DNA of 54,449 nt, from the NCBI GenBank assembly GCA_902794055.1, contig CADBGC010000008.1, forward strand, positions 1-54,449, read 5' to 3'. Under the pieces are notes generated by a model. The model ran no database searches, was not told the DNA's origin, and saw nothing but the letters and a program-made list of their open reading frames with translations. Of the stretch, positions 5,896-34,403 are shown piece by piece. The translations under genes and the position numbers were made by a program. Positions within the stretch are counted from its first letter, which is position 1; every line of letters starts with the position of its first letter. The stretch is from an uncultured Eubacteriales bacterium. GTDB lineage: Bacteria > Bacillota > Clostridia > Christensenellales > CAG-138.

Positions 5896-6456
5896 ATGCT
5901 TTTTATTAATCTTGCCGCAGCAGCGGGGCAGATATCAAGCGAGGCCGGCTTCTTTACGGAATGGCTGCATGGCATGAACATCGGCGGCGTTATCCTACTG
6001 TTGGTGGGCATTGCGCTGATCGTAGTTGAAATGGTCATCCCCGGCTTTGGCATCGCGGGTCTTTCGGGAAGCGCGGCGGTCGTTGCGGGTCTCATCGTAA
6101 GCTCCAAGAGCTTCGGTGCGGCGATGTTCACGCTGGCAATAGTCGTGCTTCTGCTTTGTATAGCGGCGCTGATAGTGTTTAAAGTCGTTTTCGGAAAGGG
6201 AAGGAAAAACTCCAAGCTGGTTCTGAACGACAGCATCACAAGCGGCTCCACCGATATTTCCGCGCTCGATGCGAAGGAGATGATCGGCAAGGAAGGTACC
6301 ACGCTGACGGCGCTTCGTCCCTCCGGCATCGCAATGATCAACGGCAGGCGACTCGACGTGCTCGCAGAGGGCGAATACATTGAAAAGGGCGAACCCGTCA
6401 AGGTATCCGCTATTCAGGGTCTTCGTATAAGCGTTGTTAAGAATACCGGCAAATGA
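5896..6456 (+). CDS. NfeD-family membrane protein
   Basis: Hydrophobic N-terminal half plus a C-terminal OB-like tail (GKEGTTLTALRPSGIAMINGRRLDVLAEGEYIEKGEPVKV). The ATG at 5896 has a GAGGTG RBS, whereas the track start at 5863 is a GTG. The arrangement nfeD, small ORF, floA matches the Bacillus yqeZ-yqfA locus. Confidence 0.8.
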   Translation: MLFINLAAAAGQISSEAGFFTEWLHGMNIGGVILLLVGIALIVVEMVIPGFGIAGLSGSAAVVAGLIVSSKSFGAAMFTLAIVVLLLCIAALIVFKVVFGKGRKNSKLVLNDSITSGSTDISALDAKEMIGKEGTTLTALRPSGIAMINGRRLDVLAEGEYIEKGEPVKVSAIQGLRISVVKNTGK

Positions 6457-6671
6457 CGGAGAATAATTCATACGAAAAAAAGCGCGAACGCTTCATGAAA
6501 AGCGGCTACTACGATGCGAGCGACGTGATCGAGGCGGCGGATAAGGCATACGATCAAAGCCTCGATGAAGCCGAACTCAAAAAGCGCCGCATCAGGGACT
6601 GGATATTCATTGTCATCGGCGTTCCCGCATTCATTGCGTTCATGTATCTCATCGTTATGATCTTCCGCTGA
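6453..6671 (+). CDS. Small membrane protein (72 aa, C-terminal TM helix)
   Basis: ATGA start/stop overlap with nfeD. Single TM helix WIFIVIGVPAFIAFMYLIVMIF. Confidence 0.6.
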   Translation: MTENNSYEKKRERFMKSGYYDASDVIEAADKAYDQSLDEAELKKRRIRDWIFIVIGVPAFIAFMYLIVMIFR

Positions 6672-6731
6672 AGGATATCGGCGGAGTTCAATAGAAATCA
6701 TAAGCCAATATTATTTGGGAAAGGAAAAACT

Positions 6732-7712
6732 ATGGATCCGATCGTAGTCGTTGGCATTATAATTGCCGCAATCATCTTCCTCATCTTCTTCTTCACCTTC
6801 GTGCCCGTGGGTCTCGCGATCAAGGCGAAGGCTTCGGGCGTTAAGGTGGGCCTGTTGCAGCTCATCGGTATGCGCATCCGCAAGGTCAACCCGCATAAGA
6901 TCCTCGAGCCCCTCATCAAGGCCACCAAGGCGGGTCTCGACCTCAACGTAAACAAGATGGAAGCGCACTACATGGCGGGCGGTAATCTCGACCGCGTTGT
7001 AAACGCCCTTATCGCGGCTCAGCGCGCGGGCATCCCCCTCGATTTTGAAAGCTCCAGCGCCATCGACCTTGCGGGTCGTGACGTGCTTACCGCTGTTCAG
7101 ATGAGTGTCAGCCCCAAGGTCATCGAAACCCCGATCATCGCGGCCATTGCGAAGGACGGCATCGAGCTGCGCGCCAAGGCAAAGGTCACCGTTCGCGTGA
7201 ACGTAGACCGTCTCGTTGGCGGTGCGGGCGAGGAAACCATCATCGCCCGTGTTGGCGAGGGCATTGTTACCACCATCGGCTCATCTCAGAGCCATAAGGA
7301 CGTGCTCGAAAATCCCGATTCCATCTCCCAGACCGTTCTTGGCAAGGGTCTTGACAGCGGCACCGCGTTTGAGATCCTCTCCATCGATATTGCGGACGTG
7401 GACGTTGGCGTAAACGTCGGCGCAAAGCTGCAGATCGACCAGGCGGAGGCGGATAAGCGCATCGCTCAGGCGAAGGCAGAGGAGCGCCGCGCAATGGCGG
7501 TTGCTCAGGAGCAGGAGAACAAGGCGGAGGTACAGGGCATGCGCGCCCGCGTTATCGAGGCCGAGGCTCAGGTTCCTCTTGCGATGGCGGAGGCGTTCAG
7601 AAACGGCAATCTCGGCATCATGGACTACTATAAAATGAAGAACATGATGGCCGATACCGAGATGCGCGAGTCCATCGGCAAGACCACCGGCGGCGAAAAC
7701 GGCAACAAATAA
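6732..7712 (+). CDS. floA: Flotillin-like protein FloA (UPF0365 / YqfA family)
   Basis: N-terminal TM helix, an SPFH-like body and a C-terminal EA-rich coiled region ([25 protein letters not shown]). GGAAAGGAAAAA RBS. Confidence 0.9.
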
Positions 7713-7743
7713 TCTGCGCGCCGAAACTACCGTATGAAAGGGG

Positions 7744-8409
7744 GTGCCGCATTTGGAAGGCATTATAATCTTCTTTGTGATAGTGTCCGTCATTACTTCG
7801 ATAGCCAATGCGGCCAAAAAGGCTCAGCAAAACGGCGGTGATCAGCGCGGCGTATCTTCTTCGGGTGCAAATGGTGCTTCAAGACAGGGCGCATATACCG
7901 GCTCTGTCACGAGCGATCAGCGTGCGAGGCTGGAGCAGCTTCGGAGAATGCAGCAGCAGCGGCAGCAGGAGCAGAGGCAGTCCGCCAACTCTCCAAGCGC
8001 AAAGCCCGCCGCTTTTGCAGCCGAGAAGCCGGTTTATCCTCATGATACCGAGGATTGCGGAGGCGGAAGCATCCATGACGGCTATCACGAGGGCGGTGTT
8101 CGCAGACCCGCTCCCGCTTCGAGCGCGGAGGGCAGTGTCGGCAGACAGGGCGTTCTCGAGAGGGAAGGCCGCGGCGCTTCCGATCTGTATAAAAAGGATC
8201 GCAGCGAAAGAAAAACCGCAAGTGCGGCGGATATCCCCGCTGCAAAGCAGCCCATGCCCGCAAGCACGGATGCCGTGAGCGCTCCGATCGATCCGGAGCC
8301 GAGCGGAGCCGAAAAGCTCTCCAAGGCGATTTCGGATAAGCCCGCCATCGTGCAGGGGCTCATCTGGAGCGAGGTGCTCGGAAGACCGCTTTCGGACAGC
8401 CGACAATAA
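7744..8409 (+). CDS. Hypothetical membrane-anchored low-complexity protein (Q/R/A/S-rich)
   Basis: N-terminal TM helix (IIIFFVIVSVITSIANA) followed by a disordered-looking sequence. The start may be GTG 7744 or TTG 7753, each after AAAGGGGG. The antisense ORFs are rejected. Confidence 0.55.
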   Translation: MPHLEGIIIFFVIVSVITSIANAAKKAQQNGGDQRGVSSSGANGASRQGAYTGSVTSDQRARLEQLRRMQQQRQQEQRQSANSPSAKPAAFAAEKPVYPHDTEDCGGGSIHDGYHEGGVRRPAPASSAEGSVGRQGVLEREGRGASDLYKKDRSERKTASAADIPAAKQPMPASTDAVSAPIDPEPSGAEKLSKAISDKPAIVQGLIWSEVLGRPLSDSRQ

Positions 8410-8448
8410 GCAGGCAGCTTATAAATTTGGGTTTCAGTTTATAGACAA

Positions 8449-8474
8449 AAGCGTTTCGAAAGGAACGCTTTTAT
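8449..8474 (+). terminator. Rho-independent terminator
   Basis: AAGCGTTTC-GAAA-GGAACGCTT followed by TTTTAT. Confidence 0.65.
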
Positions 8475-8547
8475 CGTATGCAATCTTTTTGCAGGCAAAA
8501 GCTTTTGGATATTAATTTTCAAGCAAAGTATATTATGCGAAATAATA

Positions 8548-8576
8548 TTGACCGAGTCGGCAAAAAATGTTATAGT
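8548..8576 (+). promoter_or_regulatory. Putative SigA-type promoter
   Basis: TTGACC (8548-8553), a 17-nt spacer, then TATAGT (8571-8576). Confidence 0.6.
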
Positions 8577-8664
8577 TCCTTATAATTGCAGTAAATATCG
8601 GCTATGTGCCGAAAGCGCAATGAGGATTCGCAGGATCCGCCGCTGCAAACGGAGGTATATCTTA

Positions 8665-9780
8665 ATGTTTAAATACTACTCGCCCGTGGATGATGCAATA
8701 ATCTTCTTCACGTCCAAGGTCAACAAAAGCATGACCAATATCGACCTGATGAGGACCTTGAATAAGAATCATCCCGCCCTCGAAAAGAAGCTTGAACGAG
8801 TGCTAAGGCCTTCGGTCGAGCTTGAAAAGAAGCTGAATGCGGCTATAAAAACCATCGACATGGACTATGAGTTCCTGTTTATGCTGGATCAGACGGCCGA
8901 CGGCAACGCGGATCATCTATACAACCCCGCATGGCTGCTGTTCAGCTATTGCTCGGGAAGGGGAGAGTTTTCCACGGATATGGCGACCGAGATCAAAAAC
9001 CTCCACGCGCTTCCGCAGCACAAAAGAGACGTGCTTTTCCTCAACTATTTGCGCGATCTCAAGATATTCGAGAGCCCGAGCCATATTCCGAACGTTACCG
9101 AGGAAAACTGCGGTCAGATCATCGAAACCATGCGCAGCCTGAATATGGATCAGAGTGTGCGCACGAGGCTTATCGAGCTGTACGTCAATTTCGATGAATA
9201 CGTTTCCCGCCTGAACACCATTCTCAAGCCCGCGGTGGACGTTATAATAGCAAACGAAGCGATCTATGCCGACGACGTCAAAAAGAACGAAGAAGCGATC
9301 GATGCTCTTGGCGGTCTGCGCGGCGTTGTGAAGCAGAAGTACGGCTTTGCAATGAAGGAGGGCGTTGCGGAGCGCATGCACCTTTGCGTGCTCATCCCCA
9401 ATAAGGCCAGCCTCAGGGACGACGTGAACGACAACGTGGACGCATTCTTCGGCGTGAATGTGCTCGAGCTGGTGGATATCGTTTTCTCAGGCCGCGAGAA
9501 TCAGAAGCTTTCCACAATGTTTAAGATGCTCTCCGATGAAACCAGACTTGAGATCCTGCACTCCATCTGTAAAAAGCCGATGTACGGGCTTGAGCTTGCG
9601 GAGCAGTTCTCCATCTCCGCGCCAACCGTTTCCTACCACATGCGTAAGCTCGGCATGGGTGGCTTCACCGAGAGCTATTTCGACAGCGGAAGAACCTACT
9701 ACCGCGCGAATATCGATAATATCAAGCGCTTCGTCAAGAGCTTTGAGGATTTCCTTTCCGCCGAGCCGGAGCAGCAGTAA
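8665..9780 (+). CDS. ArsR-family winged-HTH regulator with a long N-terminal domain of unknown function
   Basis: C-terminal LSDETRLEILHSICKKPMYGLELAEQFSISAPTVSYHMRKL. The ATG at 8665 follows a GGAGG RBS. The track start at 8548 lies inside the promoter. Confidence 0.75.
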   Translation: MFKYYSPVDDAIIFFTSKVNKSMTNIDLMRTLNKNHPALEKKLERVLRPSVELEKKLNAAIKTIDMDYEFLFMLDQTADGNADHLYNPAWLLFSYCSGRGEFSTDMATEIKNLHALPQHKRDVLFLNYLRDLKIFESPSHIPNVTEENCGQIIETMRSLNMDQSVRTRLIELYVNFDEYVSRLNTILKPAVDVIIANEAIYADDVKKNEEAIDALGGLRGVVKQKYGFAMKEGVAERMHLCVLIPNKASLRDDVNDNVDAFFGVNVLELVDIVFSGRENQKLSTMFKMLSDETRLEILHSICKKPMYGLELAEQFSISAPTVSYHMRKLGMGGFTESYFDSGRTYYRANIDNIKRFVKSFEDFLSAEPEQQ

Positions 9781-29897: not shown

Positions 29898-29935
29898 ATA
29901 TCGCCGCGTGATACATTTTGCGCGGCGATATTTCT
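29898..29935 (+). terminator. Rho-independent terminator
   Basis: ATATCGCCGCG (29898-29908) pairs with CGCGGCGATAT (29921-29931), followed by TTCT. Confidence 0.65.
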
Positions 29936-29994
29936 ATACTGAATAGACAAGCAAAAGACAGGTGAAAAGTCATTTGAAACGCTGAAACAAAGCC

Positions 29995-30024
29995 TTGATA
30001 AGTGAACGTATGATAAGGTATAAT
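29995..30024 (+). promoter_or_regulatory. Putative promoter upstream of the CPBP gene
   Basis: TTGATA, an 18-nt spacer, then TATAAT (30019-30024). Confidence 0.5.
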
Positions 30025-30130
30025 GAATTATGGAGGCGAGCGGCGGTATGAATGCTATATGTTTTGCAGGCTTGCGTTTAGGGCATGAAGCGTAAATCGG
30101 AAGGAATAAAGAGAATAAATATCGATATTC

Positions 30131-30739
30131 GTGCATTTTATCGTATTCTCTTGTGCATGGTTTTTTACTGCGCTGATCGCTGTCGATCTGATAAAACAAT
30201 TCATTCTTATTGCGGTTTCGATGAACATTGTCCTTTTATCGGTAAGCAATTCGCTGATGAAAAAGGATTTCGGTATCGAAGCTTTTGCCTGTAGGAACAA
30301 GCGCAGGATCGTTACGGCTTTCTTTAACGGATTTTTGTATGCTCTGCTGTTCGCTGTTGCGGTCTTTTTTACGTTCGCCGTTTTTCAGGACGTTACCTTT
30401 CTGGTGAAACAAGGTAATCTTGGGTTTTGGTCGCTATTCGTATGGGTGATAGTTCAAATTATAACTGCATTCGCAGAGGAGCTGTTTTTCCGAATCTATG
30501 CTTATGAGGTGCTTTTTTCCGCATTCCGAAGAAAGCTTCTATCAATAGTGCTTATATCGCTTATGTTTGCAGGTGTTCATATAGCCTTGCACGGCAATAT
30601 CAAGCAGTTCTTTGTTTCTTTGGTTTTTAGCTTTTATGCTTTCGGCATCAAAGAAAAAAGACCCGATGACACCCTCTATTATTTGGGATGGATGCACTTT
30701 ATATACAACTGCCTTGCGCGTTTCGTGTTTTCTGTTTAA
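30131..30739 (+). CDS. CPBP-family intramembrane glutamic endopeptidase (CAAX protease / Abi-like)
   Basis: Motif 1 EELFFRIYAY and motif 2 FAGVHI in a polytopic membrane protein. It lies in a lower-GC segment. The start codon is uncertain (GTG 30131 or an internal ATG). Confidence 0.75.
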   Translation: MHFIVFSCAWFFTALIAVDLIKQFILIAVSMNIVLLSVSNSLMKKDFGIEAFACRNKRRIVTAFFNGFLYALLFAVAVFFTFAVFQDVTFLVKQGNLGFWSLFVWVIVQIITAFAEELFFRIYAYEVLFSAFRRKLLSIVLISLMFAGVHIALHGNIKQFFVSLVFSFYAFGIKEKRPDDTLYYLGWMHFIYNCLARFVFSV

Positions 30740-30869
30740 AATGGAGGAGAAGCCTTATAAACCCGCGTGTAAACCAAAGGTAGAGTGAACTAAACCCCGA
30801 GTCGGTTGAGTAAATTGGGAGGAATATGCTAATATGAGCGCATCCAAAACACAAGGAGGCAATCTTAAA

Positions 30870-31271
30870 ATGTCAGAATTAACGATGGGCGGCTTAATCG
30901 CCGCAAAGCGGCAGGAAAAGGGGCTCACTCAGCTCGAGCTCGGCGAAAAGCTGGGCGTTACCGACAAGGCGGTTTCAAAATGGGAGCGGAATATCTCCTG
31001 CCCCGATATCGGCTCGATACCGAGGCTTGCAGAGGTGCTCGGCGTTTCCGTTGAGGAATTGCTGCGCGTGAACAATACCGCCGCGAATGAGAAGCCGAAG
31101 AAAGAAATAGGCTTTATGCTCTCGCTTCCGTTCAAGGCGATCGCGCTTGCGATGGGCGTTGCTGTCGCGGTGCTTGCCGTGCTTGAAAAGCTCGATGCTA
31201 AATCCGCATTCATAATGCTCGGCATAGGGCTTGCTCTTTTGGGCATCACAAGCCTCGGGGAGGATAAGTAA
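30870..31271 (+). CDS. XRE-family HTH regulator with a C-terminal membrane anchor
   Basis: HTH segment KGLTQLELGEKLGVTDKAVSKWERN, then the TM region AIALAMGVAVAVLAVL. The ATG at 30870 follows an AAGGAGG RBS. Confidence 0.8.
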   Translation: MSELTMGGLIAAKRQEKGLTQLELGEKLGVTDKAVSKWERNISCPDIGSIPRLAEVLGVSVEELLRVNNTAANEKPKKEIGFMLSLPFKAIALAMGVAVAVLAVLEKLDAKSAFIMLGIGLALLGITSLGEDK

Positions 31272-31450: not shown

Positions 31451-32869
31451 GTGACCGGCGCGCAATCAAAAAAGGGCTTTTTAGGCAAAAAAGACGTTGA
31501 TATGACGGAGGGCAATATACTGCGGCATCTGATCGCATTCGCCCTTCCGCTTCTTCTCGGCAATATTTTTCAGCAGCTTTACAACACTGTGGACACCTGG
31601 GTGGTGGGCAACTACGTCAGCAAGGAGGCGTTTTCGGCGGTCGGCACCGTTGGCCCGATCATGAACACGCTTATCGGAACCTTCATGGGTCTCTCCGCGG
31701 GCGCGGGCGTGGTCATCTCGCAGTATTACGGCGCCAAGCAGCACGAAAAGGTTCAGGATACGGTGCATACCGCGCTCACGCTGACGCTTATCCTCGGCGC
31801 GGTCTTTACGGCGCTCGGCATATTTATGACGCCGTATATGCTCAAGCTGATGAAAACGCCCGAAACGGTTTTGCCCGAGGCAACGCGCTATCTTCAGATC
31901 TATTTTTCCGGCATTCTCGGCCTCATGGTCTACAATATCGGCTCCGGCATAATGCGCGCGGTCGGCGACTCGCAGCGCCCGTTCATGTTTCTTTGCGTTT
32001 CAGCGGGAACGAACACCGTGCTCGATCTTCTGTTCGTTCTCGGCTTCAAGATGGGCGTGGAGGGCGTTGCGCTCGCAACGATAATCGCGCAGTTCGTTTC
32101 GGCGGCGCTCGTGGTATTCACCCTTATGCGCTCCGACAACTGCTGTAAGCTCGTGCCGAAAAAGCTTCGCATCCACGGCGAAATGCTCAAAAAGATACTC
32201 GCCGTCGGCATCCCCGCCGCGCTTCAGATGGCCGTTACCTCGTTCTCAAACGTTTTCGTGCAGAGCTATATCAACCATTTCGGCGAGGACTGCATGGGCG
32301 GCTGGACGGCATACGCCAAGATCGACCAGTTCCTATTCCTGCCGATGCAGAGCATATCGCTTGCGGGAACCACCTTCGTTGGTCAGAATCTCGGCGTGGG
32401 CAACACGAAGCGTGCCAAAAAGGGCATAGGCTACGCTCTGGCGATCTCCGCCGCCGCAACGGTCATTCTGATGATACCTGTGCTCGCGTTCGCGCCCAAG
32501 CTCGTTGAATTCTTCAACGGTTCGCCCGAGGTAGTCAAATACGGATCCATGCTTCTTAGGCTCATATCGCCCTTCTACGTGCTTTGCTGCGTTAATCAGG
32601 TGCTTGCGGGTTCTCTTCGCGGCGCGGGCAACAGCCGAACGCCGATGTTTATAATGCTTGGAAGCTTCGTTCTGTTCCGCCAGATCTATCTTTACATTAT
32701 GGCAAACTATATCAGCAACACGATAAAGCCAATTGCGCTTTCCTACCCTGCGGGCTGGCTCGTTTGCTCCACAATAACGCTTATCTACTTCCTCAAGGCA
32801 AACTGGGATAAATACAGGCTCGTTAAGGATGATGAAAATGATAAAAGTCAAGATAAAAACATGACTTGA
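31451..32869 (+). CDS. MATE family efflux transporter (intact reading frame; its 3' end abuts an inserted islet)
   Basis: 12-TM profile and the signature ALPLLLGNIFQQLYNTVDTWVVGN. The last roughly 13 codons (DDENDKSQDKNMT) are AT-rich, unlike the rest of the gene. Confidence 0.9.
   Translation: MTGAQSKKGFLGKKDVDMTEGNILRHLIAFALPLLLGNIFQQLYNTVDTWVVGNYVSKEAFSAVGTVGPIMNTLIGTFMGLSAGAGVVISQYYGAKQHEKVQDTVHTALTLTLILGAVFTALGIFMTPYMLKLMKTPETVLPEATRYLQIYFSGILGLMVYNIGSGIMRAVGDSQRPFMFLCVSAGTNTVLDLLFVLGFKMGVEGVALATIIAQFVSAALVVFTLMRSDNCCKLVPKKLRIHGEMLKKILAVGIPAALQMAVTSFSNVFVQSYINHFGEDCMGGWTAYAKIDQFLFLPMQSISLAGTTFVGQNLGVGNTKRAKKGIGYALAISAAATVILMIPVLAFAPKLVEFFNGSPEVVKYGSMLLRLISPFYVLCCVNQVLAGSLRGAGNSRTPMFIMLGSFVLFRQIYLYIMANYISNTIKPIALSYPAGWLVCSTITLIYFLKANWDKYRLVKDDENDKSQDKNMT
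32736..32829 (+). repeat. Left copy of an imperfect direct repeat of about 95 bp (MATE 3' end)
   Basis: It aligns with 34282-34375 at roughly 85% identity by eye, including the identical 26-mer tgggataaatacaggctcgttaagga. Confidence 0.85.
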
Positions 32870-32917
32870 TTGTATGCAATTAACTAATGCCAATTTAGAA
32901 AGGAAAGAACAGAGAAC

Positions 32918-34276
32918 ATGAGTAATGGGTACATTAATGAAATTGAGTATGCGAGATTCGTTTTGAATTCGCTATATAAAGATAATCCTAAACTCGTCGA
33001 ACAATATAGAGTAGAAAGCGATAAAAATCGATGGTATATTTATGATGCGGTTGCCTTTGGTGAATTGCGGCTGTCGTCGTTCGGCGCGAAGGATATTCTT
33101 GCTGATAGAATTGCAATTGAAATTAAAAACACACGAACCTTGAACGACAGTACTATTCGTTCCTTTATTCACCTTGCGGAGGAGCAAGGCTTTGATGCAG
33201 TGGTTTTTATATTTAATGGCAAGCCGAGAGAATCATATTATGATTATAATAGCGATAAAATCCAAATCTGCTTTATTCCCGCAGAAGGTAAAAATAATGA
33301 ATACAACCGCGCAGCTAAGAACAAAGTTGGAGTTGATCCTGCGCTTTTGATTGATGAATATACATTGTCGCGTTTGAAGGAAGCAAAGAATGATTTAGCA
33401 TTTGCCATAGGTGCAGGCTGCTCACGAGGATCACATATAAGTGATTGGAAAACACTTAGCAAAGCGCTTGGATACGAACTTCTGTATGAAATTGTAGCGA
33501 ACGCCGCAGAATCAATGTATAGGAGCAAAGTGATAACTGATAGATTAAACGATGGGGTTTTTGAGTGCTTTGATTCCACATCTGCGCTGGATGCGATTTA
33601 TCGATGTGTCTATGAATCTGACTATGAATCTAAGTCAAAGATTAATTATTGGAAAGCAATAAAAAGGGTGCTTTACATGGAATATGATGCTGAGAAGAAG
33701 GATAATAAGTTAATGGAAGCAATATCCAACTGCATTGAGAGAAACCATGTTAAGGAAGTTATTAACTATAATTTTGATTCTGTTCTTGAACAATATATGA
33801 ATTCGGCCTACAAATCTACTGTGAAAGAAGTTGAGCAGAGTCAAGTGACAATAAAAGAGTGTACGATTTCCCATGTTCATGGTTATATACCGTATGATTA
33901 TCGCGGAAAAGGGACTGTTGGAAACTTTGTTTTTATCGACACTGAATACTATGATAATATGATGGAAAGGGAGAACTTTACAAACAGCGTTCAGAAAAGA
34001 ATACTTGAAAGTAAAAATGTTATTTTTGTTGGCTTTTCCTTTACAGATACAAATGTGAAAGAGATTCTGCGTGAGCGACACAATAATAGTGAACCCTCGC
34101 AGAACTCAATTTTTGCTTTCCGTAAACTGCCGACCTTCGACTTTGAAGGAACAAATAATGCACTAATTGAGAAGAGGTATAAGGATCTTTTTGAAAAGTA
34201 TTTCGGATCACTGGGCGTCATAGTGGTATGGGTAAAGGACTTTAATGATATTCCGAAAATTATAAATATGATATAA
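32918..34276 (+). CDS. SIR2-like (SIR2_2 / defence-associated sirtuin type) protein with an N-terminal PD-(D/E)xK-like module, 452 aa
   Basis: Clean ORF in an AT-rich islet. The C-terminal half carries LAFAIGAGCS (GAGxS), VINYNFDSVLE (NYD/LE block), SHVHGYIP (catalytic-His block) and VIFVGFSFTDTN (GxSxxD). The N-terminus carries YIYD...DRIAIEIKN. Confidence 0.8.
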   Translation: MSNGYINEIEYARFVLNSLYKDNPKLVEQYRVESDKNRWYIYDAVAFGELRLSSFGAKDILADRIAIEIKNTRTLNDSTIRSFIHLAEEQGFDAVVFIFNGKPRESYYDYNSDKIQICFIPAEGKNNEYNRAAKNKVGVDPALLIDEYTLSRLKEAKNDLAFAIGAGCSRGSHISDWKTLSKALGYELLYEIVANAAESMYRSKVITDRLNDGVFECFDSTSALDAIYRCVYESDYESKSKINYWKAIKRVLYMEYDAEKKDNKLMEAISNCIERNHVKEVINYNFDSVLEQYMNSAYKSTVKEVEQSQVTIKECTISHVHGYIPYDYRGKGTVGNFVFIDTEYYDNMMERENFTNSVQKRILESKNVIFVGFSFTDTNVKEILRERHNNSEPSQNSIFAFRKLPTFDFEGTNNALIEKRYKDLFEKYFGSLGVIVVWVKDFNDIPKIINMI

Positions 34277-34280
34277 TTAC

Positions 34281-34403
34281 ACCCTCGCCTACCCCGCCGG
34301 CTGGCTGGTTTGCTCCACCATAACGTTCATCTATTTCCTCAGGGCAAATTGGGATAAATACAGGCTCGTTAAGGACGAGGAAACTGAGTCGAGCGGCAAA
34401 TAA
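34281..34403 (+). pseudogene. Orphan 3' fragment of a MATE gene (right repeat copy plus its own stop)
   Basis: It translates in frame to TLAYPAGWLVCSTITFIYFLRANWDKYRLVKDEETESSGK*. The intact gene end reads ALSYPAGWLVCSTITLIYFLKANWDKYRLVKDDEND... The fragment has no start codon or RBS, and its GC is host-like. Confidence 0.8.

Follow-up and report, generated by a model that had tools for sequence, protein, structure and literature searches.

The question raised by this locus is what a single AT-rich gene does behind the end of a MATE efflux transporter gene, and how it came there. The DNA analysed, hereafter the window, is a stretch of 54,449 nucleotides (nt) from an uncultured Eubacteriales bacterium of the lineage CAG-138 (contig CADBGC010000008.1, assembly GCA_902794055.1). 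The gene is an open reading frame (ORF) of 452 aa with an ATG start at 32918..34276, the only long ORF of its islet, and its product, which we call the nuclease-SIR2 protein, joins an N-terminal domain of nuclease fold to a C-terminal SIR2 domain; the gene, its domains, the cassette around it and the interrupted MATE gene all lie on the + strand. SIR2 NADases, which hydrolyse nicotinamide adenine dinucleotide (NAD+), rank among the main effectors of bacterial immunity, and the sensor with which the domain is paired differs from one known system to the next. We hold with moderate confidence that the islet is a recombinase-less mobile cassette carrying a single-polypeptide anti-phage abortive-infection system, in which a PD-(D/E)xK recognition module would govern a SIR2 NADase. 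What appears to be new here is a PD-(D/E)xK module exclusive to one protein family, combined with a reversed domain order, in what would be a single-protein SIR2 NADase defence.

The C-terminal half of the protein (residues 159-452 plus the stop codon, 33392..34276) matches the Pfam family SIR2_2 (PF13289, E=1.2e-16), scoring 61.6 bits over residues 280-405 against a cutoff of 24.5. The four SIR2 motifs that the original prediction had read from the letters are all present, AIGAGCS at 163-169, INYNFDSVLE at 282-291, SHVHG at 318-322 and VGFSFTD at 371-377, and are invariant or nearly so in the family. An AlphaFold2 model of the full-length protein, made with 36 homologues, has a mean predicted local distance difference test (pLDDT) of 84.7, and a Foldseek comparison with the PDB returned solved defence NADases, with BcThsA on top (8.2e-11), followed by DSR2 (~6e-9), EcThsA, SeThsA and KomC in a range extending to 1e-7; KomC gave the highest target-normalised TM-scores for the SIR2 half (0.71-0.74). 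By alignment of the family profile to EcThsA (8wc0), N285 (33770-33772), D287 and E291 fall on the N-Y-D...E block, H321 (33878-33880) on the histidine of KMHG, and GFSFTD on GFSFTD, GAGCS (165-169) and G372/S374/D377 completing the set of key residues. The predicted catalytic asparagine, N285, stands; of the two histidines that had been proposed along with it, the catalytic one is H321 and not H319. A single-sequence phmmer alignment to ThsA was also tried for the histidine register and mis-registered the catalytic residue, and was superseded by the family-profile alignment. The N/D/H set is intact in 62 of the 63 aligned family sequences, and GAGxS, HxHG and GxSxxD are invariant. Sequence and model together place the SIR2 half in the defence-type SIR2_2 group, and the domain would be expected to hydrolyse NAD+. 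Neither the domain search nor the model revealed a SLOG, Macro, CARF or SAVED ligand-sensing domain in the protein.

Membership in the SIR2 superfamily would in itself suit a housekeeping protein deacylase of the sirtuin type. However, the match is to SIR2_2 and not to the classical SIR2 family, and a reading of the sequence found no CxxC pair among the six cysteines, which means that the protein does not have the zinc module known from classical deacetylase sirtuins. The gene is also rare, since a pattern scan of 185,579 species genomes gave six loci, from goat-rumen Clostridia, Christensenellaceae, Bacilli and Lysinibacillus metagenome-assembled genomes. It is missing from a sister strain, it is horizontally mobile, and at every homologue locus examined, L023 excepted, it is more AT-rich than the surrounding DNA. 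On the distribution, the empty site, the mobility and the missing zinc module we rejected the deacylase explanation, which is effectively refuted.

The N-terminal domain (residues 1-122, 32918..33283) is connected to the SIR2 domain by a helical linker (residues 123-158, 33284..33391) of lower model confidence, with pLDDT 53-71 over residues 121-150. When residues 1-137 were folded alone, AlphaFold2 gave a pLDDT of 91.6 and the element order alpha-beta-beta-beta-alpha-beta, assigned by DSSP as H3-22, E27-33, E39-50, E60-70, H77-89 and E94-99. In this model D43 (33044-33046) lies on the second strand and E68-x-K70 (33119-33121 and 33125-33127) closes the third, an arrangement that is canonical for PD-(D/E)xK domains; both the fold and the motif of the PD-(D/E)xK-like module foreseen from the letters are in place. 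The named fold matches are almost all proteins of the restriction-endonuclease fold (MspJI, EcoT38I, BbvCI, R.BspD6I, NucS/EndoMS, the R2 RLE domain, McrC and Rpb5-N), and further matches are phage PD-(D/E)xK, Mrr or 'restriction endonuclease' proteins. A sequence-profile search of the domain against the PDB gave only noise (bilin-binding protein, E 0.8).

Within the 63 aligned sequences D43 is kept in 56 and K70 in 59, and position 68 carries E in 54 sequences and D in 3, such that about 52 of the 59 full-length members (~88%) have a complete D-(E/D)-K triad. The triad predicts a metal-dependent nuclease activity, probably in most members. In six members it is broken (N43, I68 or L68, C70) and the SIR2 site is kept, which fits a binding module whose catalysis is dispensable. 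We infer that the N-domain serves in recognition, binding nucleic acid and usually cutting it, and thereby controls the NADase effector. This domain seems to be the family's own. An HMMER profile search of 1.84 billion representative proteins gave 27 matches, all of them members or fragments of the nuclease-SIR2 family, therefore the N-domain is exclusive to this architecture. The distant matches P0196-P0198 were checked for other architectures; P0197 proved to be a divergent member of full length, and P0198 agrees with P0197 over the first 220 residues and then diverges. Nothing in these results points to a use of the N-domain by other effectors.

The protein could also be a dual effector, or one with the roles exchanged, in which the PD-(D/E)xK domain is the main weapon and degrades the DNA of phage or host in the manner of a Type IV or another stand-alone restriction nuclease, and the SIR2 domain has a regulatory role through NAD+ sensing or ADP-ribosylation and does not deplete NAD+ in bulk. 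The high retention of the triad and the true restriction endonucleases that are its nearest named fold neighbours would agree with this, as would the precedent of SIR2-HerA, in which NADase and nuclease activities are reported to be combined. However, all six members that lost a triad residue keep the SIR2 catalytic residues, and the closest structural relatives of the SIR2 domain are all bulk NADases. The SIR2 domain is also the more constrained of the two, with a ratio of non-synonymous to synonymous divergence (dN/dS) of 0.08 versus 0.22 for the N-domain, both under purifying selection, in the clade of homologues that carry two additional genes (see below). We therefore consider a nuclease-led or dual-effector mechanism rather improbable.

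Does such a protein belong to a defence system already named? PADLOC (PADLOC-DB dated 2023) assigned it to no system, as the original prediction had supposed, and gave only domain-level matches, to ThsA models and to Lamassu LmuA-SIR2; NCBIfam and PHROGs returned no match. A literature search found no named REase-SIR2, Mrr-SIR2 or fused-name system, although very recent naming is possible, and in the literature surveyed SIR2 occurs only in Thoeris, DSR1/2, SIR2-HerA, PD-T7-2, Avs5, prokaryotic Argonaute (pAgo) systems and Lamassu. The best match to the SIR2 half in both sequence and fold is ThsA of type I Thoeris, a SIR2-SLOG NADase (PDB 8btp, 6lhx, 7uxt, 8wc0), which shares the catalytic Asn and His, the GxSFxD block and a similar size (~450-480 aa). 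However, the order is reversed, with SIR2 C-terminal in our protein, and the other domain has a PD-(D/E)xK fold and no SLOG/STALD or Macro domain; the PADLOC ThsA model matched over its SIR2 positions 69-274 of 478 only, and no gene for a ThsB/TIR partner is found in the window.

DSR1 and DSR2 resemble the nuclease-SIR2 protein as single-gene SIR2 NADase defences with sensor and NADase in one polypeptide (fold E ~6e-9), but they have about 1000 aa, with the SIR2 domain at the N-terminus and, at the C-terminus, a long helical sensor for a phage tail-tube protein, which it binds, whereas our protein has 452 aa, a C-terminal SIR2 domain and a small N-domain of nuclease fold. KomC of the Kongming system (PDB 8zsf, 9xvc), a filament-forming SIR2 NADase, has the same SIR2 fold; it is, however, a stand-alone SIR2 protein of 264 aa that needs KomA, KomB and a nucleotide signal, and there are no such partners here. 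In SIR2-APAZ/pAgo (SPARSA), SIR2-HerA, Avs5 and Lamassu LmuA-SIR2 a SIR2 effector likewise works together with a sensing module, for nucleic acid or for protein. The match to the Lamassu LmuA-SIR2 model is weak (1.5e-10 over residues 159-389); SPARSA, SIR2-HerA and Lamassu need a pAgo, HerA or LmuB partner and Avs5 has a STAND NTPase domain, none of which occurs in the cassette or its flanks. The N-domain belongs to the fold class of the Mrr/Type IV-like PD-(D/E)xK domains (the Avs4 N-terminal nuclease, MspJI, the McrC catalytic domain), with D...(E/D)xK on beta2/beta3, but its sequence similarity to them is at noise level and it forms a family of its own. The whole protein thus lacks the defining features of the named systems considered.

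As to how the gene came to its place, the repeats that bracket it and the uninterrupted site of a related contig give a direct answer. In segments of 200 nt, the G+C content is 0.31-0.42 from ~32750 to 34350 versus 0.51-0.62 in the MATE gene, and the islet is the lowest and longest low-GC trough of the window (minimum 0.338; mean of the window 0.529, standard deviation 0.053). The unique inserted DNA (32842-34287) has 36.2% G+C, in keeping with the roughly 35% first estimated for the islet, whereas the estimate of about 60% for its flank was slightly high, the MATE gene having 54.9%. The insert consists of a single ORF with no recombinase or transposase, as had been said of it.

The insertion target is a gene for a MATE transporter of 472 aa (31451..32869, Pfam MatE E=5.7e-62). 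A direct repeat of 100 nt with 88% identity, 32742-32841 and 34288-34387, brackets the SIR2 gene and duplicates the MATE 3' end; the unit spacing of the repeats defines a cassette of 1546 bp (32742-34287) with 36% G+C. The empty site was reached via close homologues of the MATE protein, which at 95-96% identity have 468 aa, not 472, and end in ...DEETESSGK. In the related contig L024 the MATE gene is directly followed by a gene for a membrane protein of 481 aa with no SIR2 gene between them, and in a BLAST comparison with the window L024 9292-9391 aligns with both repeat copies. An exact-protein look-up of the downstream 481-aa gene led to occupied sites only, and one of a 145-aa helix-turn-helix (HTH) ORF gave no record.

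The downstream copy (34288..34387, attR-like) is 97/100 identical to the empty site and identical to it beyond that point, whereas the upstream copy (32742..32841, attL-like) is 88/100 identical to both the downstream copy and the empty site and then runs into an AT-rich tail. By these values the downstream copy is the native MATE end, and the upstream one is a mimic of that end which the cassette carried with it. The replacement tail with its stop codon (32842..32869), which the empty site does not have, completes the MATE ORF (…DENDKSQDKNMT*), so that the last ~128 nt of the gene, from 32742, are cassette-borne and substitute for the native end; MATE is kept in frame by the cassette's own mimic. 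The orphaned native C-terminus, YPAGWLVCSTITFIYFLRANWDKYRLVKDEETESSGK*, lies downstream of the cassette at 34290..34403 and is exactly the C-terminal peptide of P0063, the MATE protein at the L024 empty site. Insertion into a gene end, part of the original prediction, is thereby proven, and the islet end given there, 34403, is the stop codon of this remnant. Between the MATE stop and the SIR2 start lies a 48-nt spacer (32870..32917) with a Shine-Dalgarno-like sequence, GAAAGGAAAG (32897-32906), about 10 nt 5' of the ATG. On its two sides the cassette has as neighbours the MATE gene and a gene for a PMT_2-like membrane protein. The layout of repeats and remnant is what one crossover of the chromosome with a 1546-bp circle would be expected to leave.

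A second genome, L001, has the cassette at the same site, and here the two histories can be compared directly. The MATE genes of the window and L001 are 82-87% identical, with a proportion of synonymous differences (pS) of ~0.36, the MATE DNA adjoining the upstream repeat is 82% identical and the downstream gene 85%, the flanking genes of the two hosts differing by 13-18%. In contrast, identity is 95/100 in the cassette-borne repeat, 98.7% in the SIR2 ORF (pS ~0.025) and 100% in tail and spacer. The density of mismatches drops at 32753 and rises at ~34291-34292, which are the cassette borders. Copies identical to that of the window were found in two further contigs (L016, L017). The cassette is much younger than the split of its hosts and is therefore a discrete unit with site-specific mobility; it spreads horizontally, site-specifically and without a recombinase of its own. 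It shares with integrative islets at gene 3' ends (tRNA-type att sites and recombinase-less remnants like cis-mobilizable elements, CIME) the direct repeats of the target end, the replacement end that it supplies and the existence of an empty site. Unlike CIME-like remnants, however, this 1.5-kb unit without a recombinase is not a decayed relic and has moved recently between diverged hosts.

The source of the mimic can be traced with some probability. The native MATE remnant of L001 (L001 4809-4925) encodes ...TLIYFLKANWDKYRLVKDDETEPSGK*, and the cassette mimic agrees with the native remnant at 93/100 positions in L001 versus 88/100 in the window. Being closer to the L001 allele, the mimic probably comes from a capture in a lineage similar to L001. 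The cassettes of the window and L001 differ at 18 nucleotides, and 12 of these differences fall in codons 18-61 (window 32969-33100), which correspond to the beta1-beta2 loop of the N-domain through the start of beta3 and include synonymous and non-synonymous changes; the cluster resembles either a short patch of recombination or a surface for recognition that is hypervariable.

A different gene end flanks a sister family member in L012, where 5996-9633 is a tandem island array at tRNA-Leu(CAG). The 3' end of this tRNA recurs there as an exact copy of 55 nt (7644-7698), and a third copy, which is tRNA-end-like, occupies 9588-9633. Within the array a LytTR/DUF3021 islet is followed by the solo SIR2 islet, which stands between the exact and the tRNA-end-like copy, and a serine recombinase gene lies just past the array. 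Small islets that target gene ends may be the usual vehicle of the nuclease-SIR2 family.

Homologues of the protein form 62 clusters in a word-indexed search, nearly all of them full-length proteins of 445-470 aa, with 38-51% identity; their sources are metagenomes of gut and rumen, and their sole name is 'SIR2 family protein'. Their neighbourhoods are defence islands and mobile islets and not housekeeping contexts. With this, the significant SIR2_2 score and the fold match, the protein has come through all the computational refutation tests named with the original prediction. At L029 a Type II Thoeris system (ThsA_Macro, ThsB_TIR) and an S24 peptidase lie directly upstream, and at L021 there is a complete DUF4297-HerA pair. 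Restriction-modification genes are found at L027 (Type I, with two DUF2971 proteins and a HEPN/MNT pair) and at L025 (Type IIG, with YhcG and DUF4238). The neighbours at L012 are TIR/SEFIR, methylase, helicase and serine recombinase genes; those at L003 are a DUF4011 helicase-nuclease, AbiEii and an SLFN-like helicase, and those at L009 a YhcG nuclease and a serine recombinase. A scan of viral contigs with the family alignment found no relative, which leaves a phage-borne origin without evidence.

These contexts bear on whether the gene could serve the cassette itself, as a selfish module of the addiction or toxin type by which the cassette is stabilised, or be a weapon of inter-bacterial conflict, with no role in phage defence. 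A tiny, mobile and compositionally foreign cassette with a potentially toxic enzyme would be in accordance with that possibility; however, the solo cassette has no antitoxin or immunity gene, the neighbours elsewhere are overwhelmingly anti-phage systems, and in the loci read neither plasmid-like nor secretion-system contexts were found. We give this explanation little chance.

As an observation apart, a gene for a YhcG/DUF1016 PD-(D/E)xK nuclease directly adjoins the SIR2 gene in two lineages (L009 6775-7782 and L025 8462-9457), upstream of it in one and downstream in the other, which could mean functional linkage or mere co-residence in islands.

For the defence cassette that we favour, the following course of events can be proposed. 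The 1546-bp cassette would integrate by a single Campbell-type crossover between the ~100-nt mimic that it carries and the chromosomal MATE 3' end, presumably with the help of a catalysing enzyme; integration would restore the MATE frame and put the SIR2 gene under read-through transcription from MATE. In the protein, the PD-(D/E)xK domain would bind, and in most members probably cut, invader nucleic acid, and this binding would drive an oligomerisation that activates the defence SIR2 domain. The activated C-terminal domain, of the ThsA/DSR2/KomC type, would then hydrolyse NAD+ and lead to abortive infection, as a protection against phage. A bolder version, which we offer as a tentative suggestion with more chances to fail than to hold, sees a minimal, self-homing immune cassette with a single-protein defence of a class not described before, in which the PD-(D/E)xK domain senses phage DNA directly and triggers a filament-type activation of SIR2, and the ~100-nt mimic allows site-specific integration without a recombinase together with read-through expression. 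If true, self-homing would be a way for defence genes to spread as cassettes that differs from those of integrons, transposons and islands with an integrase.

Whatever the mechanism, the locus is a clean natural case of the movement of a single defence gene, with a 1.5-kb recombinase-less cassette, empty and occupied sites and the repair of the interrupted gene, and its hop between gut Clostridia that are ~15% diverged bears on how defence genes spread outside classical islands. The family itself adds to the SIR2 systems a compact (~450 aa) architecture of reverse order with a nuclease-fold recognition module found nowhere else, and its small size makes it suitable for biochemical and structural work on how the sensing of nucleic acid (or of something else) is coupled to NAD+ depletion.

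Several results weigh against the single-polypeptide defence cassette. The fold matches of the N-domain are each weak (E 9e-4 to 0.3), and against curated sequence families (Mrr_cat, PDDEXK_n) the best value, Mrr_cat at E=0.011, is marginal and was obtained with 2 of 14 members. The interval from the MATE stop to the SIR2 start was scanned for sigma-70-like promoters and for terminators, and nothing rose above the expectation from shuffled sequence; as the spacer has no promoter-like site, expression of the SIR2 gene by read-through from MATE is likely. No other recognised defence gene stands next to the cassette in the window, and the neighbourhoods of the homologues tie the family to defence by a guilt by association that is strong but qualitative, being a count over about a dozen contexts. 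Finally, the gene is not everywhere alone. In 6 of 10 surveyed loci (L003, L014, L019, L020, L021, L022), which form one clade, genes for proteins of 223 and 212 aa precede the SIR2 gene, and some dependence on these DUF3990/HTH partners is possible.

The layout of this pair is constant, with an overlap of 20 bp between the two genes and then a gap of 32-33 bp to the SIR2 gene, and the outer flanks differ; with the SIR2 start as reference, the conserved block occupies -1465 to ~+1380, its end coinciding with the stop codon of the SIR2 gene. The 223-aa product is a DUF3990 protein (1.6e-46), weakly similar to the ART-PolyVal family of ADP-ribosyltransferases, and matches the PADLOC candidate PDC-M42A (2e-49). 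The 212-aa protein has a C-terminal HTH_3 domain and a weak match to PDC-M42B (2.6e-4). Nothing was found in the literature on PDC-M42. The SIR2 gene might accordingly be part of a multi-gene system, either an ancestral unit of DUF3990 (ADP-ribosyltransferase-like), HTH and SIR2 genes or one that answers to a signal provided in trans, for example by a TIR protein, and the copy of the window would then be an orphan, inactive or dependent on partners. The identical spacing in these loci, the bounding of the block as a unit and the match of the pair to PDC-M42 are in favour of such a system, and so are the Thoeris II and TIR/SEFIR genes near the SIR2 gene in two loci.

However, the solo SIR2 gene occurs in at least seven lineages, that of the window included, and tblastn gave no homologue of either pair gene in the window (E>2). 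The solo cassette has recently spread between hosts and is still intact, and the protein is devoid of the ligand-sensing domains named above. Moreover, the pair proteins are 94-99% identical, with a synonymous divergence (dS) of 0.35-0.5, whereas the SIR2 proteins are 75-94% identical with dS ~0.9-1.0; from this unequal divergence the three genes do not have one simple shared history, unlike tightly co-evolving partners. In our view the pair is a module that neighbours or regulates the SIR2 gene rather than a partner that the gene requires, and we regard a multi-gene system as unlikely. That the gene stands alone, as first proposed, holds for the window and at least six other lineages, and fails for the clade where it is the third gene of a DUF3990/HTH/SIR2 cassette.

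Some features of the three-gene unit deserve to be recorded by themselves. It has ~2.9 kb (e.g., L003 8560-11380), is mobile and is found at differing chromosomal sites. The roughly twofold higher dS of the SIR2 gene suggests a swapping of its alleles downstream of the conserved pair. NAD+ is used by both DUF3990 and SIR2, and in L014 (14394-15383) a gene for an ADP-ribosylglycohydrolase lies ~5 kb downstream of the cassette, which may bear on a conflict centred on ADP-ribose and NAD.

Elsewhere in the window, 29931-30754 is a second, independent single-gene islet of low G+C content (40%), whose ORF (30131-30739) encodes a membrane protease of the Rce1-like/CPBP ('Abi') family. A flanking direct repeat was not found around 29931-30754, and the islet is not in L024, where Peptidase_M28 and HTH genes adjoin. 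The native HTH_3 gene (30834-31271) contains at 31049-31123 a locally divergent mid-gene segment that does not align to L024, a relative with 88-93% identity otherwise.

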